Assembly: GCA_026387335.1 (NCBI GenBank)
Contig: JAPLLX010000002.1
Coordinates: 77,326-141,325, forward strand
Origin: Candidatus Omnitrophota bacterium
Lineage (GTDB): Bacteria > Omnitrophota > Gorgyraeia > Gygaellales > Profunditerraquicolaceae
DNA length: 64,000 nucleotides
Reading direction: 5' to 3'
Made by a program: the position numbers and the translations under genes. A model generated the notes under the pieces. That model searched no databases. It saw only the letters and a list, made by a program, of their open reading frames with translations, and was not told where the DNA came from. Below, in pieces: positions 1-42,800 of this stretch (position 1 is the stretch's first letter; each line of letters begins with the position of its first letter).

Positions 1-940
1 CGAACAGAAAATAAGAGCAGTCCTGTTTTACTTAAGTCTGGCGGTATTTTTCTCCGGGCTCCCGCTGATTTTATCATTCTCCTTAGGTTATAAGTTTGAC
101 CCGCGCACATTTAAGTTTACTAAGACCGGGATCGTCAGTTTAAAAACTCAGCCCCAGGGAGCAGATGTTTACCTGGACGGCAGGCTCCTGGATCAGAAGA
201 CCCCGCTTACTATTAATGAACTTCTCCCCGGTTCATATAATCTTAGGGTCGAGTTAAAACATTATTATCCGTGGTCCTCTCAAATCAATGTCCAACCGCG
301 TAAAGTCATCCGCTTTGAAAAAATAATACTTTTTCCTTCCCGCCCGAATATAGAACAGCTGAATCAGGATAAAGTATCGTATTTCTGGCTGGATAAAGCA
401 GGGGGGAGGGTCTATTATTTCAATCAAAATGATAATATTCTCTATAAGTCTAATCTTAACGGAGATAGGTTTGAAGAAATAGGAAGTATCCCGGCAGAAT
501 TTTCGGCGTTACCCAGGGAATTAAAAATTTCTCCCGACAGGCAAAAGATGCTTATCTTTAACGCGCATCAGATCTGTACGCTTTATTTAAAGCCGCAAGG
601 CAATTTATCATATGTTCAGGCGCCGGTAGTTTATAATTTTCCGAAAAAACAGATCAACAATGTATTCTGGCATTCAGACAGCTATCACCTTATTTTAGCC
701 ACGGATACTAATATTGAAGCTTTGGAGATTGAATCCCGGTCTGATCCGGTTGCCCTGGTAAGCCTGAACAATAAGATGGCGGATATATTTTATGATACCG
801 ATAAAGACACGCTTTATTTTATGGACTCCCAGAAAGGCGTTGACGAAGCTATCTACGAAAACGTATATAAACTGGAATTAAATAATGAAAATAATATTCT
901 AAATGAACTCATGGGGATAAGAAAGAATGTGGAAGAATAG
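1..940 (+). CDS. PEGA domain-containing membrane protein (5' truncated by the window edge; reading frame starts at nt 2)
   Basis: Frame-2 ORF is open from nt 2 through 940; the track ORF 548-940 is only its 3' part. The translation has an N-terminal TM segment (AVLFYLSLAVFFSGLPLILSF) and a PEGA-like stretch (GADVYLDGRLLDQKTPLTINELLPGSYNLRVEL). Confidence 0.55.
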   Translation, partial: EQKIRAVLFYLSLAVFFSGLPLILSFSLGYKFDPRTFKFTKTGIVSLKTQPQGADVYLDGRLLDQKTPLTINELLPGSYNLRVELKHYYPWSSQINVQPRKVIRFEKIILFPSRPNIEQLNQDKVSYFWLDKAGGRVYYFNQNDNILYKSNLNGDRFEEIGSIPAEFSALPRELKISPDRQKMLIFNAHQICTLYLKPQGNLSYVQAPVVYNFPKKQINNVFWHSDSYHLILATDTNIEALEIESRSDPVALVSLNNKMADIFYDTDKDTLYFMDSQKGVDEAIYENVYKLELNNENNILNELMGIRKNVEE

Positions 941-2477: not shown

Positions 2478-3551
2478 ATGAGCATTAAGAAATTAATGCA
2501 AGAGATGGTTGAACGTAACGCCTCGGACTTATTTTATCGGGCAGGAGGGAGCGCGCGTTTAAAAATTGACGGTAAATTGCTTTCCGTGGATGAGAAAATA
2601 CTTACCGTTGATGATGTTGTCGCGGCAGCGCAGGAATTAACCACCGCCAAGCAGCGGGAGTTTTTCAAGCATAATTTAGATGTGGATTTTGCTATTTACT
2701 TAGAGGAGCTGGGTTTGCGGTTTCGGGTCAGCATATTTATGCAGAGAAACTGGCCCTCTATTGTCATAAGAAAAGTAAATAATACAACCCAGACGTTTGA
2801 GGAGTTAAGCTTACCGGCGGATGTTTTGAATAGATTATCCATGGAAAGAGGCGGCCTGGTCCTTTTAACCGGCAGTATGGGCTCTGGCAAATCTACGACT
2901 ATTGCCAGTATGATCGACCACATTAACAATAATAGCCGAAAACATATCCTGACCATTGAGGAGCCGATAGAGTTTACTTTTAAAGATAAAGAATCGCTTA
3001 TTAATCAAAGAGAACTGGGTATTGATGTTGCATCTTATCCGGCAGCCCTGCGCTCTTTTGCTTTACAAAGTCCCGATGTTTTATTTATCAGCAATATTCG
3101 CGATATGGAGACTATGGCTAGCGCTCTTACCGCGGCCGAAACAGGAGTATTGGTATTAAGCACCCTGCATACGATTAATGCCGCCCAGACTATAGAGAGG
3201 ATCATTAATTTATTTCCCGCGCATCAGCATCAGGAGGTCAGGAACCAGCTTTCTTCTCTTTTAAAAGGCGTCATATCTTTAAGGCTTGTTCCGGCAAAGA
3301 GCGGTAAAGGCAGGATCCCGGCTTATGAGGTTATGCTGCTTACGCCTACCATTAGCCGTTTGATCCGCGAAGGAAAGATTTGGGAAATCCCCCAGTTTAT
3401 TGATGATGGGTCAATTTTTGGAATGCAGTCTTTTACGCAGTCGCTGATAAAATTAGTCCGGGAGGGCAAGGTCAGCGAAGAAGACGCTATTTATTTCGCA
3501 GATAGTAAAGATGAATTTACCTTAGCGCTAAGAGGCATAAGAAGGAACTAG
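2478..3551 (+). CDS. pilT: Type IV pilus retraction ATPase PilT
   Basis: Walker A (GSMGSGKST), a PilT-type His box and the PilT C-terminal signature (SLLKGVISLRLV). RBS GGGAGG lies upstream. Confidence 0.9.
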   Translation: MSIKKLMQEMVERNASDLFYRAGGSARLKIDGKLLSVDEKILTVDDVVAAAQELTTAKQREFFKHNLDVDFAIYLEELGLRFRVSIFMQRNWPSIVIRKVNNTTQTFEELSLPADVLNRLSMERGGLVLLTGSMGSGKSTTIASMIDHINNNSRKHILTIEEPIEFTFKDKESLINQRELGIDVASYPAALRSFALQSPDVLFISNIRDMETMASALTAAETGVLVLSTLHTINAAQTIERIINLFPAHQHQEVRNQLSSLLKGVISLRLVPAKSGKGRIPAYEVMLLTPTISRLIREGKIWEIPQFIDDGSIFGMQSFTQSLIKLVREGKVSEEDAIYFADSKDEFTLALRGIRRN

Positions 3552-3565
3552 ACAGGAGAGTTGGG

Positions 3566-4673
3566 ATGTTAGATGAGATAAAAACCAAACTTAGCCTTAT
3601 CCAGATCAGCCTGGAGCAACTAAGAGGTTATCTTTGACATTGATAACAAAAAGAAGCTTATAGCGGATTTATCGGCGAAGATGTCCGAGCCCGGATTTTG
3701 GGATGCCGGCGAGAATTCTACGAAAATAGTCCGGCAGCTCAAAATCCTTAAAAATACGGTTGAACCGTGGGACTCCGCGGGTAAAAAATTTCAGGAGTTG
3801 CAAGAACTCACCCTTCTCCTTAAACCCCAGGATAGCGAATTCTTTTCAGATCTAAACAAGTCCGCGGATTCTCTTCTGAAGGAGTTGGGAGCGTTAGAAT
3901 TTAAGACTCTTCTATCCGGAGAACTTGACCCGAACAACGCGATTTTAAGCATCAACGCCGGAGCCGGCGGGACCGAGTCTTGCGATTGGGCAGAGATGCT
4001 TTTTAGGATGTATTCCCGTTTTTGCGAGAAGAGAGGCTGGAAGGTCAAGGCTATAGATGTGCTTTATGGAGAAGAAGCCGGCATAAAGAATGTCACGGTT
4101 TTAGTTGAAGGGGATTATGCTTACGGTTATCTTAAGGAAGAGCGCGGAGTGCATAGGTTAGTGCGTATATCGCCTTTTGACGCTAATAAGCGCAGGCATA
4201 CATCTTTCGCTTCGGTAGATGTGATCCCTGAAGTCCTGGAGGATATAGACGTAAAACTGGAAGAAAAAGACTTAAGGATCGATGTTTACCGTTCCAAGGG
4301 CGCGGGAGGCCAAAGCGTAAATACTACGGATTCCGCGGTGAGGATCACGCACCTACCCAGCGGAATAGTCGCGCAATGCCAGAACGAACGCTCGCAGCAT
4401 CAGAATAAACAGACAGCGTTAAAGATCTTAAAGGCGCGCATATATGATATGGAAAGGCTTGCTCGGGAAGCAGAGATGCTCAAAAATTACGCCGGAGGGA
4501 AAAAGAAGATAGAATTCGGAAGCCAGATCCGCTCTTATGTTATGCACCCCTACAGTATGGTTAAGGACCACCGCACAGATCATGAGACCGGGGATGTTTC
4601 TAGCGTCATGGATGGGGCCCTGGATGAATTTATTGAAGCGAATTTAAAGTTGCAAAAAGGAAGAAAAAAATAA
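3566..4673 (+). CDS. prfB: Peptide chain release factor 2, requiring a programmed +1 ribosomal frameshift at CUU UGA C (3632-3638)
   Basis: ATG at 3566 encodes MLDEIKTKLSLIQISLEQLRGYL and then hits an in-frame TGA at 3635. The +1 frame continues DIDNKKKLIADL..., with SPF and GGQ motifs downstream. The N-terminus matches the E. coli RF2 ...LRGYLD... frameshift context. Confidence 0.9.
3623..3638 (+). promoter_or_regulatory. prfB: RF2 autoregulatory +1 frameshift site: internal SD-like AGAGGT followed by CTT TGA C
   Basis: Sequence AGAGGTTATCTTTGAC. This is the canonical CUU-UGA-C slippery/stop context, with an SD-like element 3 nt upstream of CUU. Confidence 0.85.
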
Positions 4674-7600
4674 TGTTAAGGTATATTAAAAAATTGGCTT
4701 TAAGCAGCAAGCAGAAACAGATCAATCGCCTGGCTCCCGGAGTGAAGATATTTTTACATCCGGATATGCCGCAGCCATCAATGCATAAAATGGCCCAGAT
4801 AAGCTCTATAGTGTATGCGGTTAACGCGCTGGAAGCAAAAGTCAGCGGTTTGACCGATGAGCAGTTAAGGGCCAAGACACCGGAATTTAAGGAACATATC
4901 CAGCGGGAGGCGAAAGTCTATGAGCAGGAATTACTGGAGTTGGAAGAGGCGATGCTCTCCGTGGCTATTCCGGAAGAAAAAGAGAAATTAAAGGAAAAGC
5001 TTAAATTTACGCGCAATAATGTTTTTAAAGATATCCTCCCCGAAGCGTTCGCGATAGTCAGGGAGGCGGCCAAAAGGACAATAGGCCTGCGGCATTTTGA
5101 TTCCCAGCTCGCCGGAGGCGTAATCTTACACGAAGGCCGGATCGCGGAGATGTCTACCGGTGAAGGAAAAACTCTGGTGGCGACCCTTCCGGCGTATCTG
5201 AACGCCCTTCTGGGTAGAGGAGTGCATATAGTCACGGTAAACGATTATCTGGCCCGCCGCGACTCAGAGTGGATGGGGCCGGTCTATGAATTTTTAGGGT
5301 TAAGTGTGGGGGTCATCCAGCATGAGATGTCCGACGAGCAAAGGAAGCTGGCTTATTCCTGCGATATCACCTACGGGACAAACAATGAATTTGGCTTTGA
5401 TTACCTGCGCGACAACATGAAGTATTCACTGGAAGATCTTGTGCAGAGGCCTTTTTACTACGCCATAGTTGACGAAGTAGATTCAATATTGGTGGACGAG
5501 GCGCGCACCCCGTTGATTATCAGCGGAGCGGCTGAGGAGTCTACGGGAAAATATTTTACCGCTAAAAATATCGCCGACCAGCTAAAGGGCAGGCGGGTTA
5601 CCGAGAGGGACGAGATAGACGCTAAATACAAGGGCCTGGATTTAGGCAAGGGCTTTGATTATGTGGCGGATGAAAAAGCCCAGACCATAGCCTTGACTGA
5701 TGACGGTGAAACAAGGGCAGCCCAGCTTTGGGGGGTAGAGAGCCTGCATAATATTGAAACTATAGAATGCCGGCATCATACTATCGCCGCCCTAAGGGCC
5801 AAAGAATTTTATGAGCGCGATGTAGATTATGTAATTAAGGATGGCGAAGTCATTATTGTTGATGAATTCACCGGCCGCATGATGCCGGGGAGGCGCTGGT
5901 CAGACGGCTTACATCAGGCAGTGGAAGCCAAGGAAGGGATGAAGATAGAACGCGAGAACCAGACGTTAGCCACGGTTACCTTTCAGAATTATTTCCGGAT
6001 GTATGAAAAGCTAGCCGGAATGACCGGGACCGCTTTTACTGAAGCCAATGAGTTTAAGAATATATACCAGCTGGATGTTATAGTCATCCCGACAAATAAG
6101 CCGCTAATCCGGGCAAATTACCCTGACCGTATTTATAAAACAGAAAAAGAAAAATTTGCAGCGGTAGTTGAAGAAATCGTCGAACTTTATAATTCAGGCA
6201 GGCCGGTTTTGGTAGGCACCATCTCAATTGATAAGTCTGAGCGGCTCGCGCAGATGCTTAAACTGCGCGGGATAACCCATCAGGTGCTTAACGCCAAATA
6301 TCATGAGTTGGAAGCGCAGATTGTCGCCCAGGCCGGAAGGTTTAAGGGTGTTACTATCGCCACCAATATGGCCGGCCGGGGGACAGATATTTTATTAGGC
6401 GGTAACCCGGAATTTATGGCTAAAAATGTAGCCAAACAAAAACTTAATACTGAAGATCCTGCTTATCAGGAAGAGTATAAAAAAATATTGGATAAATATA
6501 AGCAGGAGACTGAGACTGAGCATAATAAAGTAGTGGAATTAGGCGGCCTGCATGTTTTAGGGACTGAACGGCATGAAGCGCGCAGGATTGATAATCAGTT
6601 GCGCGGCCGCTGCGGCCGTCAGGGAGACCCTGGTTCATCCAGATTTTATGTTTCTTTAGGGGATGACCTGATGCGGCTTTTTGGTTCTGACCGGCTTATC
6701 GGCATTATGGATAAGCTGGGGTTAGAAGAAGGCCAGGTCATTGAGCATCCCTGGGTCAGCCGCTCCATTGAAATTGCCCAGAGGCGGGTTGAGCAGCATA
6801 ACTTTGAAATAAGAAAGCAGCTTTTGGAATATGATAATGTAATGAATAAGCAGAGAGAGATAATTTACGGCCAGCGCCACCAGATCCTGCAGGGGATTTC
6901 TTTAAGAGAGAGAGTGTTGGAGATCGCCGAAGCCGTTGTGGATAATCTTATGAGTATCTATTTTCCGGATAATTCTTCCGGAGCTGATCCGGACTTGGAA
7001 GGTTTTGTGACCGCGCTAAATTCTAAATTCGCTTTAGTGCCCGCCGCGGAAATGCTGAATAATAATTCTAAAAACGGCCTTAGGCAAGAATTATTTAATC
7101 AGGTAATCAGCCTTTATGAAAATAAAGAAAAGGCAATCGGCTTAGATTTAATGCGGCATTTAGAGCGTATGGTATTCTTGCAGATCATTGACGCCAAATG
7201 GAAGGATCATTTATACGCTATGGATAGCCTGCGCGAAGGCATAGGGTTACGCGCTTATGGCCAACGCGATCCGTTAGTGGAGTATAAACGCGAGGCATTT
7301 GGTATGTTTAGTCAAATGGTCGCTTCCATTGAAGAGGAGTCAGTAGAGGCTATTTTCAAACTGCAACCGTCCCAGCCGCAGAGTTTTAGAGGGGCATTTA
7401 GTTCCGTGCATCAGGAGCTTTCGCATCCTGAGATTACCGGACTACAAGGCCCCCAAGAAGGAGACAGCGGCGAAGATTTTGCAGCCGCTGAAGAAGGGCC
7501 ATCCCAAAAAACAGTAAAATTATCCCACCCTAAAGTCGGACGCAATGAGCCTTGCCCTTGCGGTTCCGGCAAAAAATATAAAAAATGTTGCGGCAAATAA
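4673..7600 (+). CDS. secA: Preprotein translocase ATPase SecA
   Basis: DEAD-like motor motifs (MSTGEGKTLVATLPAYLNAL, VTVNDYLARRD) and a C-terminal zinc-binding tail (CPCGSGKKYKKCCGK). The start overlaps the prfB stop (TAATG). Confidence 0.95.
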   Translation: MLRYIKKLALSSKQKQINRLAPGVKIFLHPDMPQPSMHKMAQISSIVYAVNALEAKVSGLTDEQLRAKTPEFKEHIQREAKVYEQELLELEEAMLSVAIPEEKEKLKEKLKFTRNNVFKDILPEAFAIVREAAKRTIGLRHFDSQLAGGVILHEGRIAEMSTGEGKTLVATLPAYLNALLGRGVHIVTVNDYLARRDSEWMGPVYEFLGLSVGVIQHEMSDEQRKLAYSCDITYGTNNEFGFDYLRDNMKYSLEDLVQRPFYYAIVDEVDSILVDEARTPLIISGAAEESTGKYFTAKNIADQLKGRRVTERDEIDAKYKGLDLGKGFDYVADEKAQTIALTDDGETRAAQLWGVESLHNIETIECRHHTIAALRAKEFYERDVDYVIKDGEVIIVDEFTGRMMPGRRWSDGLHQAVEAKEGMKIERENQTLATVTFQNYFRMYEKLAGMTGTAFTEANEFKNIYQLDVIVIPTNKPLIRANYPDRIYKTEKEKFAAVVEEIVELYNSGRPVLVGTISIDKSERLAQMLKLRGITHQVLNAKYHELEAQIVAQAGRFKGVTIATNMAGRGTDILLGGNPEFMAKNVAKQKLNTEDPAYQEEYKKILDKYKQETETEHNKVVELGGLHVLGTERHEARRIDNQLRGRCGRQGDPGSSRFYVSLGDDLMRLFGSDRLIGIMDKLGLEEGQVIEHPWVSRSIEIAQRRVEQHNFEIRKQLLEYDNVMNKQREIIYGQRHQILQGISLRERVLEIAEAVVDNLMSIYFPDNSSGADPDLEGFVTALNSKFALVPAAEMLNNNSKNGLRQELFNQVISLYENKEKAIGLDLMRHLERMVFLQIIDAKWKDHLYAMDSLREGIGLRAYGQRDPLVEYKREAFGMFSQMVASIEEESVEAIFKLQPSQPQSFRGAFSSVHQELSHPEITGLQGPQEGDSGEDFAAAEEGPSQKTVKLSHPKVGRNEPCPCGSGKKYKKCCGK

Positions 7601-9561
7601 GAAAACAATTAGCAACTGAGTTAATTTTATGTTTCTCTAGCGCGCTCCTGCTTATCCTTTCCTTTTCTTCAAGTAAGTGGTGCTGGGTATTCGCCTGGGT
7701 GTCTTTTGTGCCGTTGTTTTTTGCTCTGGAGAACAAAGGGGCTAAGCGAGCGTTTGGCCTGGCTTACTTTACGGGAATATTATTCTGGTCAGGCACAATA
7801 TATTGGTTAGCTAACGTAACTATTTTCGGCCAGATCCTTTTAATCCTGTATCTTGCGCTTTATTTTGGCCTGTTTGGTTTATTAATGACCCGGCCATTTG
7901 CCAAATGCAGCCTGTTATTTATACCCGCATTATGGGTCTTCCTTGAATATGCGCGCAGCCATCTTCTAACGGGCTTTCCCTGGGCTTTGCTGGGTTACTC
8001 GCAGTACGCGAATCTGGCGATTATCCAGATTGCCGATATCGCCGGAGTCTGGCTCGTCTCTTTCCTGGTCATGTTTGTGAATGTCGCTATTAAGGAAGCA
8101 TGGTCCAGGAGGCAGCGCAGGTATCTATTTTTTGCCGGTATTTTTTTAGCCCTCAGTCTTGCTTATGGGTCTTTAAGGTTGCCTAAGATCGAGAGCCCGG
8201 AGACATTAAGAATATCTGTTGTGCAGGGGAATATCCCGCAGGAGTTAAAATGGGAAGAGAGGGCCAGAGAATTTGTAATCAACAGGTATTTTAAGTTAAC
8301 CGGTGAGGCCAAGAAAGACGCGCCGGATTTAATCATCTGGCCTGAAGCAGCCCTGCCGGTAGTCCTGGAAGAGCAACCTCTTTATTATGAAAGATTAAGC
8401 CGGTACACAAAAACAATCGGCCGGCCGTTAATTTTTGGCGCGGTCACCAGCCGTAACGACGCTTATTATAATAGCGCGCTGCTCTTATCTAAAGAAGGCA
8501 GATTATTAAGGAGTTACGATAAGTTCCACCTTGTTCCGTTCGGTGAGTTTATTCCTTTCCGAAAGGCTTTTCCGTTCCTAGAGACAATCGCTCCCATTGG
8601 CGATATTACCAGGGGCCGGGATTATACCCTGTTTAATATCCAGCATCAGGGTTTAAGGATAAGGCATCAATTCGGGGTATTGATCTGTTTTGAAGATGTT
8701 TTTCCGGAATTAGCCAGGGAATTTGTAAACAAGGGCGCGGATTTTCTGGTCAATATTACCAATGACGCCTGGTTTGGCAAGACTACCGAAGCCTACCAGC
8801 ATCTGGCCGCTTCGGTTTTTAGGGCGGTAGAGAACAGGGTTTGCCTGGTGCGCTCGGCCAATACCGGCATCTCCGGATTTATCGACCCGCAAGGAAGAGT
8901 TGTTCCTTTAGCTGACGCGCAAGGTAATTTAATTTTTACCCCGGGCTATAAAACAGAGAATATATTTTTGCCCGCGCATGCGTCATTTTACGGTTATTAC
9001 GGAGATTTTCTGATTCCTCTATGTTTATTGCTTCTTATATATATTATACTTTTTTCTTTATATAAAAAGGCGATGCGTAAGATCCTGCTGATTTCTCTGC
9101 TTATTTTGGCTATTTATTCAGCGATAAATTATTATTTCGCCGATAAATATTATTTTCTTTGCCCTATACGTTACGATACTAGTCTTATTGTCCGTAGCGA
9201 TTCCCGGGGGGATGGTTTTTTCGGCTCCAGCCGTAATGGCAATAGGATGCATCAGGGGATTGATTTGTTTGCCCAGGTCGGCACTCCGGTTTTGGCAGCT
9301 CGTTCGGGTATAGTTACGGCGGCCAAGAGCAACCGGGGTATGGGTAAGTATGTTATCATCCGCCATAGTTTTAATCTGGTCAGTATTTACGGACACCTCT
9401 CCCAGATTTTCGTTACTAAGAATCAAATCCTGCGCCAGGGACATATTATCGGCAGCGTTGGCAAGACCGGAAACGCCAGGCATCCCGGGATACAGCCGCA
9501 CTTGCATTTTGAGGTCAAGAAAAACGGCATTCCCCAGGATCCCTTGGAGTATTTAAAATAA
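7585..9561 (+). CDS. lnt: Apolipoprotein N-acyltransferase (Lnt) fused in frame to a C-terminal M23 (LytM-type) metallopeptidase domain
   Basis: Residues 1-~495 carry Lnt TM helices plus the CN-hydrolase domain (ISVVQGNIPQE..., IIWPEAALP, CFEDVFPE, NITNDAWFG). From the internal ATG at 9073 (MRKILLISLLILAIYSA...) there is an M23 domain (HQGIDLFAQVGTPV..., GHLSQIFV, HLHFEV). There is no stop between the two. Confidence 0.8.
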   Translation: MLRQIRKQLATELILCFSSALLLILSFSSSKWCWVFAWVSFVPLFFALENKGAKRAFGLAYFTGILFWSGTIYWLANVTIFGQILLILYLALYFGLFGLLMTRPFAKCSLLFIPALWVFLEYARSHLLTGFPWALLGYSQYANLAIIQIADIAGVWLVSFLVMFVNVAIKEAWSRRQRRYLFFAGIFLALSLAYGSLRLPKIESPETLRISVVQGNIPQELKWEERAREFVINRYFKLTGEAKKDAPDLIIWPEAALPVVLEEQPLYYERLSRYTKTIGRPLIFGAVTSRNDAYYNSALLLSKEGRLLRSYDKFHLVPFGEFIPFRKAFPFLETIAPIGDITRGRDYTLFNIQHQGLRIRHQFGVLICFEDVFPELAREFVNKGADFLVNITNDAWFGKTTEAYQHLAASVFRAVENRVCLVRSANTGISGFIDPQGRVVPLADAQGNLIFTPGYKTENIFLPAHASFYGYYGDFLIPLCLLLLIYIILFSLYKKAMRKILLISLLILAIYSAINYYFADKYYFLCPIRYDTSLIVRSDSRGDGFFGSSRNGNRMHQGIDLFAQVGTPVLAARSGIVTAAKSNRGMGKYVIIRHSFNLVSIYGHLSQIFVTKNQILRQGHIIGSVGKTGNARHPGIQPHLHFEVKKNGIPQDPLEYLK

Positions 9562-9563
9562 AT

Positions 9564-10709
9564 ATGTTCAATATTATTTTATTAGGCGTCACCAGTTTAT
9601 TGACGGATATCTCCAGCGAAATGGTTTATCCGATACTCCCGGTTTATCTGGTTACAAAACTTGGGGCTAGTCCGGCTATATTGGGTTTAATTGAAGGCAT
9701 TGCTGAAAGTTTAGCCAGCTTGCTTAAGGTATTCTCAGGTTATTTCTCGGATAAGATTAAACTAAGAAAACCTTTTACTATATTTGGCTACGCCGCTTCT
9801 ACCGTTGGGAAATTTCTTCTCTATATTTCTACAAGCTGGGGTTATGTTTTGGTAGCCCGGATAGTGGACCGTTTCGGAAAAGGGATGCGCACTGCTCCGC
9901 GCGACGCCTTGATTGCGGAGAGTAGTAAGGAGAGGAAAAGAGGGGCGGCTTTCGGATTACACAGGGCTTTAGATTCGCTGGGCGCTTGCCTGGGAGTTTT
10001 AGGCGCCTATTTTTTGATTACTCATTATCAGGGTGAGTTTAAGAATGTTTTTCTTCTTGCGCTTATACCGGCGATATTAGGTGTGTTATTCCTTTTTTTC
10101 GTCAGAGAGAAGAAGGCTCCCGCGCCGAAAGAAGCCGGCAATAAAATTGAATTCAGATGGCGCGCTCTGGATAAAAGACTAAAGCTCTTCCTGGTATTCA
10201 CATTTGTATTTACTCTTGGTAATTCGTCTAATCAATTCCTGCTCTTACGCGCGCAAAATCTGGGTAATCCCCTCCCCATAGTTATACTATTGTACCTTTT
10301 TTATAATATAAGTTACGCTATTGTTTCGTATCCAGCTGCGCGCCTTTCGGATAAAATAGGCAGAAAGAAACTGCTTGTCGCAGGTTACCTATTTTACGCC
10401 CTGGTTTATTTAGGGTTTGCCTTAAACAAATCGCCGCATAATTTCTGGTTTTTATTCGGCGTCTATGGATTATATATAGGATTTACCGAAGGTGTAGAAA
10501 AAGCGCTGGTAGCGGATATCGCACCGAGCGAACTTCGCGCTACAGCCATAGGTTTACACGCCACGCTTGTGGGTATAGGTTTATTGCCGGCGTCAATATT
10601 TGCCGGATTACTTTGGAAATCTATCGGTCCGCAAGCCGCGTTTTATTTCGGCAGCTTTATGGGGCTAATCTCAAGTATAGGATTTTATTGGGTTTTAAAG
10701 GGGATATAA
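9564..10709 (+). CDS. MFS transporter
   Basis: Twelve predicted TM helices, MFS loop motif (GKGMRTAPRDA). Confidence 0.75.
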   Translation: MFNIILLGVTSLLTDISSEMVYPILPVYLVTKLGASPAILGLIEGIAESLASLLKVFSGYFSDKIKLRKPFTIFGYAASTVGKFLLYISTSWGYVLVARIVDRFGKGMRTAPRDALIAESSKERKRGAAFGLHRALDSLGACLGVLGAYFLITHYQGEFKNVFLLALIPAILGVLFLFFVREKKAPAPKEAGNKIEFRWRALDKRLKLFLVFTFVFTLGNSSNQFLLLRAQNLGNPLPIVILLYLFYNISYAIVSYPAARLSDKIGRKKLLVAGYLFYALVYLGFALNKSPHNFWFLFGVYGLYIGFTEGVEKALVADIAPSELRATAIGLHATLVGIGLLPASIFAGLLWKSIGPQAAFYFGSFMGLISSIGFYWVLKGI

Positions 10710-10731
10710 ACTAGGGGGTTTGACCTAAAAA

Positions 10732-12129
10732 ATGCTTAAAAAATTAATTACTATTTTAATATTATTGCTGCTTTATTCCGCACTAGGAATAAGCCTGGCC
10801 TTAGCCCAAAGCGCTTACGGCACAATAACTGCGTTTAATAAAGATGACCGCGTCCTTATACTTGCCCCGCATCCGGATGATGAAACTTTAGGTTGCGCAG
10901 GCGTGATCCAAAACGCGCTAAAAGCCGGGGCAGAAGTAAAAATAGTTTATCTTACTAACGGGGATAATAACGAGTTTGCTTTTATTGTTTATGAGAAGAG
11001 GTTGACTTTTAAGAAGGGCGAGTTTATCCATATGGGCCAGGTGCGCAGGCAAGAAGCGATTGAGGCAATGAAGCTATTGGGTTTAAACGAAGATAACCTG
11101 GTATTCTTAGGTTACCCGGATTTCGGGACATTTACCATATTCACAAAATATTGGCAGGCGCTTAAACCCTACCGGAGTATGCTTACGCGTTCGACAAAAG
11201 TGCCTTACCAAAATGACTTGTCATTCGGCGCTCCTTATGTCGGAGAAAGTATCTTAAGCGATTTGGAGAAAATCCTGCTTAATTATAAACCGACGCAGGT
11301 TTTTGTCGCGCATCCGGCGGATGTTAACCCCGACCATAAATCGCTTTATCTGTTTTTCCAGATAGCTTTGCGTAATTTAAGAAAACAAATTCCTGATCCC
11401 AAGGTATATCCTTATCTTGTCCATTCTTCAGGCTGGCCTAAACCGCGGCATTATCATCCAGAATTAAGCCTGGAGCCGCCGGTTAACCTTACGGATTCTC
11501 AAGGAAAGTGGCTGAAGTTGGATTTGACCCCGCTAGATTTAGAAAATAAGCACAAAGCCGTACTCTGTTATAAAAGCCAGACAGAATCCAGCGCTTTTTA
11601 CCTGTTGTCATTCGCGCGTAAAAATGAATTATTTGGAGATTATCCCGAGATTGAATTAAGCCGGCAGGTTTCTTTAAAAGAGCGGGCAATTGCCTTTTTC
11701 GGCTTCTCTAAGATGTTCACGAATTCAGAAGAAGAGGGGACCCTGGCTAATGACAGCCTTATAGAAAATCAGGGAGAGGTAAGTTATGCCGTTGTAGATA
11801 ATTGCCTGCTTATACGCGTGGAGAAGGATAAGGAGCTAATACACAGGTTCAGCTTAACGCTTTATATTTTTGGGTTTAACGCTAAAGTCCCGTTTTCTTC
11901 TATGCCTAAAATACGCATAGTAACTAAGTCTAATAAGTTTAAAGTTTATGACGGCAAGAAAATAATTAATCCCGGCAGTATCCGTTTGGATTTGACCGCC
12001 GACGATTTAGTCTTACGTATACCGCTGAACATATTGGGGGACCCTGAATTTATACTTACTTCGGTAAAGGCGCGGGGAGAGAAGTCAGCTTCAGGCACCT
12101 CGGGTTTTAGAAAAATTGTTATCAAATAA
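10732..12129 (+). CDS. PIG-L / LmbE-family N-acetylglucosaminyl deacetylase with signal peptide and a C-terminal extra domain
   Basis: Signal peptide, then LILAPHPDDETLGCAG and YLTNGD motifs typical of LmbE-like zinc deacetylases. Confidence 0.65.
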   Translation: MLKKLITILILLLLYSALGISLALAQSAYGTITAFNKDDRVLILAPHPDDETLGCAGVIQNALKAGAEVKIVYLTNGDNNEFAFIVYEKRLTFKKGEFIHMGQVRRQEAIEAMKLLGLNEDNLVFLGYPDFGTFTIFTKYWQALKPYRSMLTRSTKVPYQNDLSFGAPYVGESILSDLEKILLNYKPTQVFVAHPADVNPDHKSLYLFFQIALRNLRKQIPDPKVYPYLVHSSGWPKPRHYHPELSLEPPVNLTDSQGKWLKLDLTPLDLENKHKAVLCYKSQTESSAFYLLSFARKNELFGDYPEIELSRQVSLKERAIAFFGFSKMFTNSEEEGTLANDSLIENQGEVSYAVVDNCLLIRVEKDKELIHRFSLTLYIFGFNAKVPFSSMPKIRIVTKSNKFKVYDGKKIINPGSIRLDLTADDLVLRIPLNILGDPEFILTSVKARGEKSASGTSGFRKIVIK

Positions 12130-12143
12130 CAGGAGGAGGCAAC

Positions 12144-12629
12144 ATGCTAGAGCTCAAATTAATTGAGGTCAAAAAACCGCAGGATGTTAATTTAATATTG
12201 GGCCAGAGCCATTTTATTAAAACAGTAGAAGACCTTTATGAGGTTTTGATGAATAGCGTGCCGGGTATAAAATTCGGTTTGGCCTTTGTTGAATCCAGCG
12301 GGGCCTCTAAGGTAAGATCAGAGGGTAACGACCCGGAATTAAAGTCGTTGGCTTCCTCAAACATCCTGGAAATAGGCGCGGGCCATAGCTTCATCATATT
12401 TATGCGCGACGCCTTTCCGATTAATGTCTTAAATGCGATTAAAAACATCCCGGAAGTCTGCTCCATATACTGCGCGACAGCCAATCCTTTAAAGGTAATA
12501 GTAGCCCAAACGCAAGATGGTTCGGGTATCCTGGGAGTGATTGACGGCGGAAAGCCTAAGGGCGTGGAAAACGAGGCAGATATAGCTTGGCGCAAAGATT
12601 TCTTGCGTAAAATCGGATATAAGCTATAA
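12144..12629 (+). CDS. Conserved hypothetical protein, possibly adenosine-specific-kinase family (PF04008-like)
   Basis: Motifs GIKFGLAFVESSG, CATANP and GILGVIDG recall that family. The assignment is tentative. Confidence 0.3.
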   Translation: MLELKLIEVKKPQDVNLILGQSHFIKTVEDLYEVLMNSVPGIKFGLAFVESSGASKVRSEGNDPELKSLASSNILEIGAGHSFIIFMRDAFPINVLNAIKNIPEVCSIYCATANPLKVIVAQTQDGSGILGVIDGGKPKGVENEADIAWRKDFLRKIGYKL

Positions 12630-12682
12630 TCTTTCTTACAAAATTAAAGCCGCTAAGATTTGACTTGTTTAAGTGAGGGGAT

Positions 12683-13594
12683 ATGGATTTAAAAAAAATA
12701 CGTAAAAGCATTATTGGGTTTTTAAGCTGGTTTGGTTTGACTACCTGTTCCCTGATAGTCAGGATTATGCCCGCGAGCTTCCTCTATTGTTTCGCTGATT
12801 GCGTAAGCTTTTTAGCCTGTAGATTTGCCGCTAAACAAAAACGGATTGCCTTGGAGAGCCTAAGTTTTGCTTTTGGCGAGGAGAAAACTGCTTTTGAGCT
12901 TGAGCAGATTGCCAAAGATTGTTTTACTATTATGGCTAAATCGGCGGTAGAATTGATGTTCTTTTTTGATAAGCCGTCTATCTTGAAGAAGCGGGTTACG
13001 CTTGTGGGCAGGGAAAATTTGGATAGCGCGTTAGCCAAAGGCTGCGGAGTGGTTTTAGTTAGCGCCCATTTCGGTAATTTCCCGCTTTTACTCGGGAGGC
13101 TGGCGGTTGAAGGCTATATAGCTGGAGGTATAATGAAGCCGATGCATGATGCGGGTGTAGAGAGGATTTTTTTGGAAAAACGCAAAAAATTCGGGGTCAA
13201 AACCATCTACAGCCAGCCGCGCAATGCTTGCGTAAATAATACCATTCAAGCGTTACGTAACAATGAGTTAGTTTTTATCCCGATAGACCAGAATTTCGGA
13301 ACCGGCGGAGTTTTTGTTAATTTTTTCGGCAGGAAAGCAGCTACTGCAGCAGGGCCGGTTGTCTTTGCCCAGCGCACGGGCGCGGCACTCTTACCCTGTT
13401 TTATAGTCAGGCAGCCCAATGATACGCATAAAATTATCTTTGAACCGGCGGTAAAACTAGAAGAGGGTAAGGATTCCCGGGATACCGTTCTTATAAATGT
13501 TCAGAAACTGACTAATATCATTGAGGCATATATCCGCAGATACCCGGCGGAATGGGGATGGATCCACCGCAGATGGAAGAGCCAGCCGGGCTAA
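12683..13594 (+). CDS. Lipid A biosynthesis lauroyl/myristoyl acyltransferase (LpxL/HtrB family)
   Basis: N-terminal TM, an acyltransferase core, and the C-terminal YPAEWGWIHRRWK typical of LpxL-family proteins. Confidence 0.7.
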   Translation: MDLKKIRKSIIGFLSWFGLTTCSLIVRIMPASFLYCFADCVSFLACRFAAKQKRIALESLSFAFGEEKTAFELEQIAKDCFTIMAKSAVELMFFFDKPSILKKRVTLVGRENLDSALAKGCGVVLVSAHFGNFPLLLGRLAVEGYIAGGIMKPMHDAGVERIFLEKRKKFGVKTIYSQPRNACVNNTIQALRNNELVFIPIDQNFGTGGVFVNFFGRKAATAAGPVVFAQRTGAALLPCFIVRQPNDTHKIIFEPAVKLEEGKDSRDTVLINVQKLTNIIEAYIRRYPAEWGWIHRRWKSQPG

Positions 13595-39865: not shown

Positions 39866-42800
39866 ATGAAAGTCAAATTAAGAAAAATCCTATCTTTAGC
39901 TTTAACCATTAGTTTACTTTTTCAGCAAATAGGTTTTGCCCAGATAGCTACCGAACTTAACCTGGTCAATCACTTCGCCAGGATGGCTAGCAGTCTCACA
40001 GTAGAGAAATTTCGGCCCCTGCACCTGCGTTATTTCTCTTACGACAACTTAAATGACAATTTCAAGGTATTGGTGGATAAAGGTGACTTCGAGAAGGGAC
40101 TGTCCCCGAAGGGGGCTGTCCCTGAAGAGAAACTTAAAGAAGAAACCAAAACCCTCCTTAGCTACTTCCTTGTAGGAGTTACTCTTCCAGATAGTATGTT
40201 CTGGGTTAACCTGCGCCCTGATTCCGAAGACCAGATAATAGACCAGTATCTGGAGAAGACAGATATAGGTAAGATAATGCTGGAAGCAGATCTCCAGCTA
40301 AAGAAAGACACCGCGCTAATGACTTCTCCGGCTACCCCTGAAGGTAGGGAATACTGGGATAGGCTCTATAAGAAGGCAGCCGAGCTTTATGGCTATGATA
40401 ATGTTAGCATACCTACCTTAACCCGGCCCTGGATAGTCCCCGGAGAAATAATTGTCCGGGAATCTCAAGACTCAGCCTATGTTTATAAAGCTAATCTTAA
40501 GGTAATGCTGGAGCAGGATTACTTAAAAGATTCTAGTAACTATAACTTTAAAGACAGCCGCTCCAAAGCCCTGAATGAATACTCATCCGAACTAATAAGG
40601 GAATTAATTATCCCTAAGCTCACTAAAGAAGTAAACTCCAGCAAAAGATACGCTCCTTTACGCCAGGTATATTACTCTTTAATCCTGGCCCGCTGGTTTA
40701 AACTGCGCTTTAGCGGCAAAACCGGCACCTATGCTTCGCTCATTAACACTAGGAATTTAACTAACTTAATATCTAAAGACTCCTGGTCCAAGACCGATTA
40801 TTTTAAACAATACCAAAAATCCTTCTCTGAAGGCGAATACAATATCCAAGAACCAGTGCGTACCCCTACAGGCCAGGTAATCAGGAGTTACTTTAGCGGC
40901 GGGATAGATGTAGCTAGTAGCGCTATTAATACTCAGAATGGCGTTAGTAATCTTAAAGCGGCGTTGCCCCTTTCTTTGTTTTCTCGAACCGGAGTCATAA
41001 TAGGAGGAAATGCCGCAAGGCCTTTTAGCGTAAATCTGCAGCCCGTTGTTGCCGCTTCAGTCGGCGCCGCCTCGCCGGTTAAAACCTCTAGCCCGATATT
41101 TACTCTTGATGATAGAAATGGGGTAGTCTTTTCTGTTTATCCCAGAACAGAAATAAGAGAGGATCAACTAAGAGAGGCGGCGGAGGTTTTGAAAAACCGG
41201 ATTTTTAACTATCCAAAAAATGGCAAGATTATTGATATTCAGCTAGTCCCTGGCTCTAAGCGGCAGATAGCTTATCCTACGCGCTGGAAAATAGTTATAG
41301 AGCATAAGCCTGATTTAGAAGAAACTCTGGTTACATTAGTAAATGATCAGGGCAAAGTTATTATTAATATAGGCTATTCTATCGATAGTAAAGCGCTCGA
41401 TTTACCAGAAAAACTTCTTAACGAACACCTGCAGATGGCATTGATTAGCGCCGCATCCAGAATAAGGTTTAATTCACTGGCCGCCGCCTCGCCGGTTAGT
41501 TCATTAGAAAATCAAGCATATCTTCTTGCTTTAACCTTGGGCATAAAAGATTCAGAAAGGAAGTATGTCGCGGTGGTATTTATGATGCCTTTGATAAAAG
41601 CCTTTATGGATAATAGTAATCCTCCTCCGACTTCAAGCCAGGCCAAAGAATTCTATCAGAGAATAATAAATAATACAGACAAGACAGTTTCAGTTGAAGT
41701 TTTAGCCCGGTCGTTTGCTTTCCTTTCAAATCCGAACGCTAGCTTGTCGGAAAAAGAAAAATTCAACAGCTCGCCGGTGACTTCAAATTTAGCTAAGGCA
41801 GTTGAGGAAGCGCAAAGCCAGTTGCCGGCAGATGTAAATGAACAGATTTTAAAGTTTATTGTTACCGGCGATGAAAATGGAAGAATACTTTATCCTATTT
41901 GGCCGCAAGATTCTGTTATGGTCGGACATGTCAGAGATGACCGGGCTGGATATTTTGCCAGAGGCCTGCAGAATAGAGGCTTTAAAAATTTATTAGGATA
42001 TATTAAATTTACCAATGATTTCCAAGGTAAAGCTGTTTTGTCCGAAGAAACTATCGCTAGTGTTCCAAATACTTTTTTTGAGAGAATATCCAACAAGGGG
42101 TATCAAGTGTTGGTGATTTCTGAAGATGAGAAGAAAAGCCATACGGGTAAAAACGCTGCCGGTAGGAAAAAGGACGGGCTTTTCCCCGGGCAAAAACAGA
42201 TTGTAATACCTATGCAGAAATCTGAAATGGCCTATGTAGATACTCCCCAGATGAAAATGAAAGAATGCGCTGACGAGGTATTAAATGGACTGGATGACGA
42301 TGCTACAGATTTTATTTTAGTTAATCTGCTAAGTTCAGATATGATGAAACACACCGGTAACTTCCAAGCGGCAAAAAAAAGTAATGAAATAACCGACCAG
42401 CAGATCGGAAGAATAAAAGAAAAGGTTGATAGAATAAAAAGCCATATTCTGGGTGATATGATGAAAGAAGTCAATAAATACTTATCTAGAGAAGAGGCCA
42501 GTCAGCTTTATGTTTTACTATTGAATAATTATGCTGAATTTTTAGCAAGGCTGAAGAATAAAAACCAGGAGCTCTATAAACGGATAAAAGATTTAGAAGC
42601 CAAAATTCCCATCTTTGTTATTACTGCTGACCATGGCGCTTCTGAGGCAGGTCTCACTGATAATCCGAAGGAATCCGACACTTTCCATACAGCCAATCCA
42701 GTGCCGTATATTATTTATGATCCCCTAAGAACTCAAAAATTAGCTTTAAAGTCCGGACAGACCATCAGGAATAACGGGGCTACATTATTACACCTATTAG

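Follow-up and report, generated by a model that had tools for sequence, protein, structure and literature searches.

The final step of lipoprotein maturation is catalysed by apolipoprotein N-acyltransferase (Lnt), an enzyme of the inner membrane. In a 64,000-nucleotide stretch of a Candidatus Omnitrophota contig (the window), the lnt gene does not close after the last helix of the enzyme and its frame continues into an M23 peptidase. We asked whether this gene encodes one genuine protein with two enzymatic activities, how such a gene could have come about, and whether joining the two enzymes means anything for the cell.

Results

One reading frame with two enzyme domains

The fused gene reads through as a single open reading frame with no stop codon and no frame break, and its product combines a complete Lnt with a ninth membrane helix and an M23 domain that is likewise complete (Table 1). 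The original prediction, that Lnt is fused in frame, through an additional signal-anchor helix, to a LytM-type M23 domain whose active site is complete, was borne out by the Pfam domains, the unbroken frame and the fused relatives described below, and the motifs it had quoted were located (HQGID from residue 556, HLHFE from residue 639). The start of the gene overlaps the end of secA by 16 nt. The surrounding genes are of mixed function, several of them belonging to the envelope (secA, MFS, PIG-L, LpxL-like).

Table 1. Positions in the window of the fused gene, its predicted parts and its neighbours
Feature	Position	Residues	Strand	Remarks
secA	4673..7600		+	directly upstream of lnt::M23; equivalent order in relatives
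lnt::M23 fused gene	7585..9561	658 aa + stop	+	
LNT_N membrane domain (N-terminal)	7639..8088	19-168	+	Pfam PF20154, 119.8 bits (gathering 27.1); AF2 helices
CN_hydrolase, periplasmic nitrilase-like domain	8212..8922	210-446	+	Pfam PF00795, 99.8 bits (gathering 23.2)
TM8, last Lnt helix	9010..9060	476-492	+	predicted periplasm to cytoplasm; hydropathy peak 475-493; AF2 helix 476-492
Fusion junction, predicted basic cytoplasmic loop Y-K-K-A-M-R-K	9061..9081	493-499	+	holds former M23 start ATG (9073-9075)
TM9, ninth helix	9082..9138	500-518	+	predicted cytoplasm to periplasm; hydropathy; AF2 helix 494-518
Juxtamembrane linker and M23 N-terminal extension, conserved	9139..9243	519-553	+	DKxYFLCPIxY ... 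RxDxRGxGxF; includes Cys526; alignments A1, A2
Peptidase_M23 catalytic domain	9244..9543	554-653	+	Pfam PF01551, 102.2 bits (gathering 28.7); all 96 profile positions
MFS transporter gene	9564..10709		+	begins 3 nt past the lnt::M23 stop codon
PIG-L family gene	10732-12129			next after the MFS transporter gene

The fusion protein scores 361.8 bits against the NCBIfam model TIGR00546 'lnt' (cut-off 132.9). Its catalytic triad, E254 (codon 8344-8346), K313 (8521-8523) and C368 (8686-8688), lies in the motifs WPE, DKxHLVPFGE and CFE, is invariant across the 24 sequences of alignment A1, and presumably corresponds to E267, K335 and C387 of Escherichia coli Lnt. The AF2 model (pLDDT 88.2, pTM 0.80) contains an eight-helix Lnt membrane domain whose helices 7 and 8 flank the periplasmic catalytic domain, and Foldseek aligned about 510 residues of it with the E. 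coli and Pseudomonas aeruginosa Lnt structures at target-normalised TM-scores of 0.80-0.84, those for E. coli Lnt being 0.82-0.84. Window residues 1-492 share with these enzymes (PDB 5n6h, 8b0l, 5n6m) both TIGR00546 and the triad motifs, at about 29% identity, whereas the window protein goes on past helix 8, adding a ninth helix and then another enzyme domain on the periplasmic side. In E. coli Lnt, of which residue C387 has been named, there are eight transmembrane helices and both termini are cytoplasmic (PMC5500888). As judged from motifs and model, residues 1-492 are a complete apolipoprotein N-acyltransferase that is probably active.

In the M23 half, the HxxxD and HxH zinc-binding motifs and the additional catalytic histidine are all present, and the residues concerned, H556 (codon 9250-9252), D560 (9262-9264), H604 (9394-9396), H639 (9499-9501) and H641 (9505-9507), are invariant in 219 family members, fused and unfused. 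The best partial NCBIfam matches of the module are DipM, Pgp3, ShyC and MepM. Several of these enzymes have been characterised as peptidoglycan DD-endopeptidases. A degenerate LytM amidase activator of the EnvC, NlpD or ActS type was considered and rejected, given that the zinc ligands are all intact and that the corresponding models, whose cut-offs lie at 270-375 bits, reach 30-44. Among solved structures its nearest relatives are Campylobacter jejuni Pgp3 (6jmx), the Neisseria-type structures 3slu and 6muk, and ShyA (6ue4); the Csd1/Csd2-type 5j1l and lysostaphin/LytM were also compared. All share with the window module the fold signature of HxxxD and HxH zinc ligands plus a third catalytic histidine, a match that is limited to the catalytic domain and has E-values of ~1e-16 or weaker. 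The window module lacks LysM and any other N-terminal domain of a regulatory kind and is tethered by the membrane helix and to Lnt. It is, to judge by these residues, a catalytically intact LytM-type domain and a probable peptidase.

The lnt stop codon and the M23 start codon of unfused relatives map exactly to the junction. Here the internal ATG at 9073 encodes M497 (MRKILLISLLILAIYSA), and the string TATAAAAAGGCG, quoted in the original prediction, was found at 9061-9072. The ninth helix aligns with the N-terminal hydrophobic segment of 162-residue stand-alone M23 proteins and is most probably the former signal anchor of such a protein; a TM8-TM9 hairpin is seen in the hydropathy profile and in the AF2 model alike. 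On the pattern of its E. coli homologue, the last Lnt helix would end in the cytoplasm, from where the seven-residue basic loop would lead into the ninth helix, and this helix would re-cross the membrane and place the M23 domain in the periplasm, on the side of the Lnt active site. The predicted topology fits two periplasmic catalytic domains.

An overlapping gene pair in most relatives

We surveyed the 80 best-matching GTDB species loci, of 366 genomes encoding a relative. In 76 of these Omnitrophota loci a stand-alone gene for a membrane-anchored M23 protein of 162 residues lies directly downstream of lnt on the same strand, in 50 of the 76 paired loci the two genes overlap by 4 nt (ATGA/GTGA), and in one locus of the 80 they are fused. 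Window residues 497-658 align end to end, at 60-80% identity, with hundreds of stand-alone M23 proteins of 161-164 residues. Such proteins (for instance P0217, annotated 'M23 family metallopeptidase', and P0125) share the hydrophobic helix and the DKxYFLCPIxY motif with the window protein but are encoded by separate genes with a start codon of their own, usually in a 4-nt overlap with the lnt stop. Relatives have in common the gene order RF-secA-lnt-M23-(MFS/CDF)-PIG-L, and the genes downstream of the pair vary (MFS, CDF, PIG-L). From the surveyed loci, the overlapping lnt-M23 pair is the normal and ancestral state in Omnitrophota, and the fusion is rare and derived. The original prediction had offered, as the contrary case, orthologues always kept as separate genes with an intergenic gap; separate genes are indeed the rule, but instead of a gap there is usually the overlap, and a minority are fused. 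Three close unfused relatives (P0018, P0020 and P0015) have lnt without an M23 gene at the site, so the pairing is not obligatory. These being the closest unfused relatives, the ancestral pair becomes visible only in the wider sample.

Repeated fusion and decay of the internal start codon

Homologues of the window protein are also fused, which the original prediction had left to be checked: 17 fused sequences, the window and 16 other protein clusters of equal architecture, were found in independent JGI, NCBI, ENA and Logan assemblies at 51-97% identity. They are currently annotated simply as 'apolipoprotein N-acyltransferase'. The closest, P0001 (97% identical), has a junction equal to that of the window and is listed under JGI, Logan and ENA, on two contigs. 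When a neighbour-joining tree was bootstrapped, the fused sequences formed one clade in none of the 100 replicates, and a single origin was rejected on this count; each replicate contained four to seven all-fused clades, most commonly five. In P0016 and P0017 the junction is also of a different length. On this phylogeny, the lnt-M23 fusion arose independently at least about four times.

The largest fused clade extends down to ~60% identity, and neither of its active sites has been lost. The window, P0001, P0003-P0005, P0014 and P0016/17 keep the ancestral ATG, while three other lineages have GCA (L005, L088) or GTT (L086) in its place. As the start codon is replaced and the M23 active site intact in these three lineages, the fused form is sufficient there and kept by selection, and their M23 peptidase can be produced only within the fusion.

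To look for the architecture beyond this family, an M23 profile was also compared with 1.84 billion representatives, and among the best 150 matches only P0009 and the fragment P0241 contained Lnt. The other proteins of ~650 residues that were checked among these matches were mostly BlaR1(M56)-M23x2 fusions, and two of them carried M23 repeats only; Lnt was not found in any of these proteins, a result whose scope is the best 150 matches, with more distant M23 domains lying outside it.

Discussion

Our analysis points, with a probability of roughly 80%, to a genuine bifunctional inner-membrane Lnt-M23 protein in the window, derived from an overlapping gene pair and with halves that keep their ordinary jobs. 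The ATGA stop-start overlap is expected to couple translation of the two genes, and a small indel at the overlap would delete the lnt stop codon and join the frames, as has happened several independent times. Each half most likely goes on doing what it did before, Lnt the N-acylation of lipoproteins and M23 the endopeptidase cleavage of peptidoglycan cross-links, while the fusion would fix a one-to-one co-production and a co-localisation already favoured by the gene overlap. The two halves may also cooperate.

The 4-nt overlap of relatives is of course the kind of place where a single-base error could fuse two adjacent genes on paper, and the sequence around the junction is rich in A and T. 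Yet an equal junction occurs in P0001, from three sources, and in another 12 sequences of its clade, and a read error would not yield the substituted start codons of other fused lineages, which together make a spurious indel a negligible prospect. A hidden frameshift at the junction, against which the original prediction had cautioned, is excluded by comparison with the fused relatives (P0001 and fifteen clusters down to 51% identity). It is somewhat less far-fetched, although still improbable, that the M23 enzyme comes chiefly, or as an extra product, from internal initiation at the ATG at 9073, the read-through fusion being a minor or irrelevant product. The window is among the sequences that retain this ATG, the A/T-rich sequence upstream of it resembles the pre-start region of unfused relatives (e.g. 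L007 and L054, 'aaagaagcgATG'), and more than half of the window genes start without a Shine-Dalgarno-like motif. A scan found no such motif ahead of 9073, but this decides nothing, since only 17 of the 39 window genes have one and lnt, MFS and PIG-L are likewise without one at their starts. Internal initiation has more to fear from the junction itself, where termination-reinitiation of the kind expected of an ATGA overlap cannot operate because there is no stop codon, and from L005, L086 and L088, where the start codon is gone and the M23 active site is not. Independent translation from M497, which had been suggested as an alternative, therefore does not hold as a general mode, the start codon being lost in three fused lineages; in the window, where the in-frame ATG and its A/T-rich context are retained, albeit without a Shine-Dalgarno motif, some separate M23 protein could also be made.

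A further alternative is release of the M23 domain after translation, whether by a signal peptidase I cut past the ninth helix or by Lgt/Lsp lipoprotein processing at Cys526, and the second route would make the M23 module a substrate of its own Lnt partner. Cys526 is placed ~8 residues past the helix and a cysteine is found here in 172 of 201 unfused family members. Of 18 fused members only 9 keep it, which would suit a residue dispensable after fusion, although the contrast is weak and confounded by phylogeny, and serine takes its place in 11% of unfused members as well. A lipobox, [LVI][ASTVI][GAS]-C (PROSITE PS51257), has A, G or S at -1 and is free of charged residues in the positions directly before. 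The family consensus D-K-x-Y-F-[LI]-C, with Y-F-L or Y-F-I before the cysteine and thus L or I at -1, and with D and K at -6 and -5, fails this rule, and the module was rejected as a lipoprotein; nor was any A-x-A-type signal peptidase I site seen past the ninth helix in the alignments. We consider either form of release very improbable.

A genuine bifunctional protein could nonetheless be of no consequence. Fusion may be selectively neutral, an accident eased by the 4-nt overlap and compatible topology, with two enzymes that act independently and uncoupled, and we regard this as a real possibility even if we lean against it. One small indel at the ATGA overlap suffices to fuse the genes, both of the joined termini are basic and predicted to be cytoplasmic, the fusion is rare and scattered, some lineages are entirely without M23 at the locus, and the neighbourhood is a general one. 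On the other side stand the persistence of the largest fused clade to ~60% identity with both active sites intact and the adjacency of lnt and M23 in 76 of 80 species; this adjacency is kept while the downstream genes vary, which suggests that selection acts on the pair. Fusions of neighbouring genes are a classic means of predicting that two products interact, functionally or physically, and the Omnitrophota genes have the pattern of a Rosetta stone, being adjacent in nearly all species loci, fused in one of the 80 and in 16 more clusters, and intact at both active sites. A bolder proposal is that Lnt and the small M23 protein of Omnitrophota form a physical and functional unit, produced in most species as two proteins together and in some as one chain, in which the last step of lipoprotein maturation is spatially tied to local peptidoglycan cleavage. 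We put this forward tentatively and think it rather unlikely in so strong a form. If it were true, the M23 enzyme might open the wall at the sites from which newly triacylated lipoproteins depart the inner membrane or at which they are attached to the wall; alternatively, Lnt might scaffold or gate an M23 enzyme that lacks a regulatory domain of its own. Without such a domain an M23 endopeptidase has to be controlled by other means, for which a membrane partner is plausible.

A two-domain Lnt has been described in Mycobacterium tuberculosis and M. bovis BCG, where Ppm1 (Rv2051c / BCG_2070c) joins Lnt to Ppm synthase, and the two are encoded by neighbouring genes in M. smegmatis (MSMEG_3860/3859) and Corynebacterium glutamicum (ppm2/ppm1) (PMC3850990). 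This is the closest precedent, in that the C terminus of Lnt is likewise joined to a second envelope-biogenesis enzyme whose gene is adjacent in relatives and fused in some; in contrast to the window protein, the partner is a polyprenol-monophosphomannose synthase and not a peptidase, and the event, in a different phylum, is unrelated. Ppm synthase acts on the cytoplasmic side and would need no extra membrane helix. Our literature searches on Lnt combined with M23 or LytM, on fusions of Lnt and peptidoglycan hydrolases, and on Lnt, M23 or peptidoglycan and lipoproteins in Omnitrophota found nothing relevant, and a coupling of the lipoprotein pathway to a wall hydrolase of the kind proposed here was not found in the literature searched. 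Each enzyme is familiar by itself. The new elements, neither of them found in the literature searched, are the architecture of Lnt, ninth helix and M23 and, more than this, the near-universal occurrence of lnt and an M23 endopeptidase gene as an end-to-end pair throughout an uncultured phylum.

If the fusion is neutral, it is an annotation curiosity. The locus also offers a clean natural case in which overlapping ATGA pairs with compatible topology repeatedly collapse to one gene, after which the redundant start codon decays. Beyond this, the fusion leads to the hypothesis, backed by the phylum-wide gene pairing, that lipoprotein acylation and peptidoglycan remodelling are linked, such that these very small and possibly host-dependent bacteria may coordinate, at their inner membrane, the maturation of lipoproteins with the hydrolysis of peptidoglycan.

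Domain composition of the fused protein

The lnt and M23 sequences of the window form a single protein (see table), and inspection of the region 9040-9080 revealed neither a stop codon nor a frame break. Besides the three Pfam domains, the NCBIfam equivalog model for Lnt (TIGR00546) scored 361.8 bits against a cut-off of 132.9, while the C-terminal part gave partial NCBIfam matches to the characterised M23 peptidoglycan endopeptidases DipM, Pgp3, ShyC and MepM. The Lnt triad E254, K313 and C368 is invariant in the 24-sequence alignment A1, and the M23 active-site residues H556, D560, H604, H639 and H641 are invariant across 219 sequences; indeed, every membership feature that could be tested was present in the Lnt half and likewise in the M23 half. 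The closest solved M23 structures are those of Campylobacter jejuni Pgp3 (6jmx), 3slu, 6muk, the Csd1/Csd2-type 5j1l and ShyA. Since its active site is intact, the module is predicted to be an active-type M23, and a degenerate activator of the EnvC/NlpD type can be ruled out. The in-frame fusion of Lnt and M23 that formed the core of the original prediction is thus borne out by one reading frame with domains of both families, and its main interpretation was correct; the details quoted for it (ATG at 9073, the peptide MRKILLISLLILAIYSA, the motifs HQGID and HLHFE, and the upstream sequence TATAAAAAGGCG) are found at those positions.

Features of the window
Feature	Position	Strand	Remarks
Gene string	2478-13594		T2SSE ATPase, release factor, SecA, Lnt(-M23), MFS, PIG-L, adenosine-kinase-like, LpxL-like acyltransferase, BioY
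lnt start/secA end	7585-7600		16-nt overlap
lnt::M23 fused gene	7585-9561	+	single ORF, 658 codons
LNT_N	residues 19-168		Pfam, far above gathering score
CN_hydrolase	residues 210-446		Pfam, far above gathering score
Peptidase_M23	residues 554-653		Pfam, far above gathering score
Former M23 start codon (M497)	9073		ATG
Cys526	9160-9162		juxtamembrane motif DKxYF[LI]-C-P-[IV]-x-Y (alignments A1, A2)
Fusion stop/MFS start	9561-9564		MFS start 3 nt past the stop codon
PIG-L family deacetylase	10732-12129	+	465 aa; Pfam covers residues 42-208 only
Giant ORF	39866-46357	+	2163 aa; sole Pfam matches Metalloenzyme (731-857), iPGM_N (1101-1231)

Occurrence of the fusion

The fusion is also present in relatives. 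A search of 5.8 billion proteins recovered 16 further clusters with these three domains (P0001-P0014, P0016 and P0017; 615-676 aa), 97% down to 51% identical to the window protein and drawn from JGI, NCBI, ENA and Logan assemblies, all Candidatus Omnitrophota where named. The junction aligned straight through in all 16, and the 97% identical P0001, with three sources listed and two contigs, has the same junction as the window. For practical purposes, this rules out a frameshift introduced by assembly or sequencing. The databases name these proteins only 'apolipoprotein N-acyltransferase'.

Outside this family the architecture did not recur: among the best 150 matches of an M23 profile to 1.84 billion representatives it was seen only in P0009 and the fragment P0241, and the other long matches checked were mostly BlaR1(M56)-M23 fusions. 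Many high-ranking proteins of ~650 aa in that search are BlaR1-type Peptidase_M56 membrane sensors with two M23 domains (the set includes P0274, P0283, P0287, P0302, P0323, P0333 and P0282), a different and apparently widespread fusion of a membrane protein with M23. Nothing relevant came up in full-text literature searches on Lnt with M23/LytM, gene fusion or peptidoglycan hydrolase, or on Omnitrophota with Lnt, M23 or peptidoglycan and lipoprotein. The nearest architectural precedent is mycobacterial Ppm1 (Rv2051c/BCG_2070c), in which Lnt and Ppm synthase, encoded by neighbouring genes in Mycobacterium smegmatis and Corynebacterium glutamicum, are two domains of one protein (PMC3850990); the evolutionary logic is alike, with adjacent genes in most species and a fusion in some.

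Origin from an overlapping gene pair

The C-terminal 162 residues (M497-K658) align over their full length, N-terminal hydrophobic helix included, with hundreds of separately encoded proteins of 161-164 aa at 60-80% identity. When a profile built from the latter was run on one genome per GTDB species, 366 genomes contained a relative, and we surveyed the loci of the best 80, nearly all Omnitrophota MAGs, by scoring stop-to-stop ORFs with HMMs of the Lnt and M23 parts. In 76 of these 80, lnt lies directly upstream of M23 on the same strand; one (L005) is fused like the window, and in the other three, one of which sits at a contig end, no lnt precedes M23. The 76 pairs mostly share an ATGA/GTGA overlap of 4 nt between lnt stop and M23 start (50 loci), the remainder having other overlaps (3) or gaps of 0-10 nt (7), 11-60 nt (12) or >60 nt (4). 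This adjacency points to the overlapping gene pair as the ancestral and dominant state, phylum-wide in Omnitrophota, and to the window's fusion as rare and derived, the overlap stop codon having been lost. The overlap would be expected to couple translation. Comparison of the junction 'AAA AAG GCG ATG CGT' with the unfused L007-type 'AAG AAG CGA TGA' suggests that a one-base insertion at the overlap would suffice. The pair is not obligatory, since P0018 (locus L001), P0020 and P0015, all closely related to the main fused clade, have secA upstream of lnt and then MFS or PIG-L, with the M23 gene absent at the site.

Two more distant family members without lnt upstream (L083 and L084, 53-56% identity) are possibly paralogues with another genomic setting; the M23 gene of L083 overlaps an upstream 239-aa ORF, and a 1010-aa ORF comes next. 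The same lnt-M23 arrangement occurs in L049 (DATJPP010000180.1), labelled Candidatus Margulisiibacteriota, and L007, L011 and others carry the label 'uncultured Planctomycetales'; such labels probably reflect errors of binning or naming rather than genuine occurrence beyond Omnitrophota.

Relatives share the order release factor, secA, lnt, M23, MFS and/or CDF, PIG-L, adenosine-kinase-like and LpxL-like, and the order from T2SSE ATPase to BioY is conserved across distant Omnitrophota. The string is very tightly packed in the window. The C-terminal half of its PIG-L protein (~250 aa) has no Pfam match, and relatives have proteins of similar length (463-480 aa) at that position. Elsewhere in the window, the matches of the giant ORF correspond to parts of a cofactor-independent phosphoglycerate-mutase-like fold, most of its length being unmatched in Pfam.

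Probable repeated fusion and single-chain product

In a neighbour-joining tree of the Lnt part (121 sequences), the window grouped with 11 fused clusters, while P0011, P0013, P0014 and the pair P0016/P0017, whose junction is one residue longer, were scattered among unfused sequences. The window's subclade of 8 had 93% bootstrap support and the P0008-P0012 subclade 96%, their union 56%. A single fused clade appeared in 0 of 100 replicates, which speaks against a single origin; each replicate contained 4-7 maximal all-fused clades, most often 5. Fusion followed by fission is formally possible as an alternative to repeated independent fusion, but the downstream genes also differ between fused loci, and the best reading is at least about four independent fusions.

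The residue aligned to M497 varies among fused proteins (M, V, L, W or A). The former M23 start codon is still ATG in L085 and L087, as in the window, and has become GCA in L005 and L088 (P0011) and GTT in L086 (P0013), with the five M23 active-site residues intact in these three. M23 can there be produced only as part of the Lnt polypeptide, and because a read error would not substitute a start codon, this is strong sequence evidence that their fusions are old and real. Such decay in several lineages indicates that the single-chain form is functional. For the window itself, the original prediction had raised internal initiation at 9073, judging the ribosome-binding site there weak. We consider a substantial separate M23 product unlikely: although the ATG is retained, no SD-like motif precedes it, and the termination-reinitiation expected from the ATGA overlap of relatives is impossible once the junction has lost its stop codon. 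Only 17 of 39 window genes have an SD-like motif, so that its absence at 9073 is uninformative.

Predicted membrane topology and working model

Escherichia coli Lnt spans the membrane with eight helices and keeps both termini in the cytoplasm; its nitrilase-like domain, between H7 and H8, is periplasmic (PMC5500888). Hydropathy places the last Lnt helix of the fusion at ~475-493 and a further helix at ~500-518, separated by the basic loop Y-K-K-A-M-R-K. An AlphaFold2 model from a 120-sequence alignment (mean pLDDT 88.2, pTM 0.80) pairs helices 476-492 and 494-518 in a hairpin, after which residues 545-657 form a beta-rich domain whose pLDDT is mostly >90; ~510 residues of its Lnt part superpose on solved E. 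coli and Pseudomonas aeruginosa Lnt with TM-scores of 0.80-0.84 (normalised to target). The fusion would thus connect two positively charged termini that both lie in the cytoplasm, so that the former M23 signal anchor becomes TM9 and returns the M23 domain to the periplasm beside the Lnt catalytic domain. Such minimal disturbance of topology may be why the fusion is tolerated and recurrent. Close to the membrane, the position of Cys526 holds Cys in 172 of 201 unfused members, whereas of the 18 fused members only 9 have Cys and 8 have Ser; covalent fusion might have made a role in, for example, association or anchoring dispensable, a weak signal confounded by phylogeny.

The most likely model is a bifunctional membrane enzyme, each half performing its usual, predicted chemistry, in which fusion would make permanent the 1:1 co-production already favoured by overlapping genes. 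Cooperation of the halves is suggested because the pair is conserved while downstream genes vary. Our analysis adds to the original prediction an account of the fusion's origin, from gene pair through recurrence to start codon decay. The Lnt-M23 protein is a new variant of known systems rather than a new kind of system; without demonstrating a new mechanism, it hints at a coordination of lipoprotein maturation with peptidoglycan hydrolysis in Omnitrophota.
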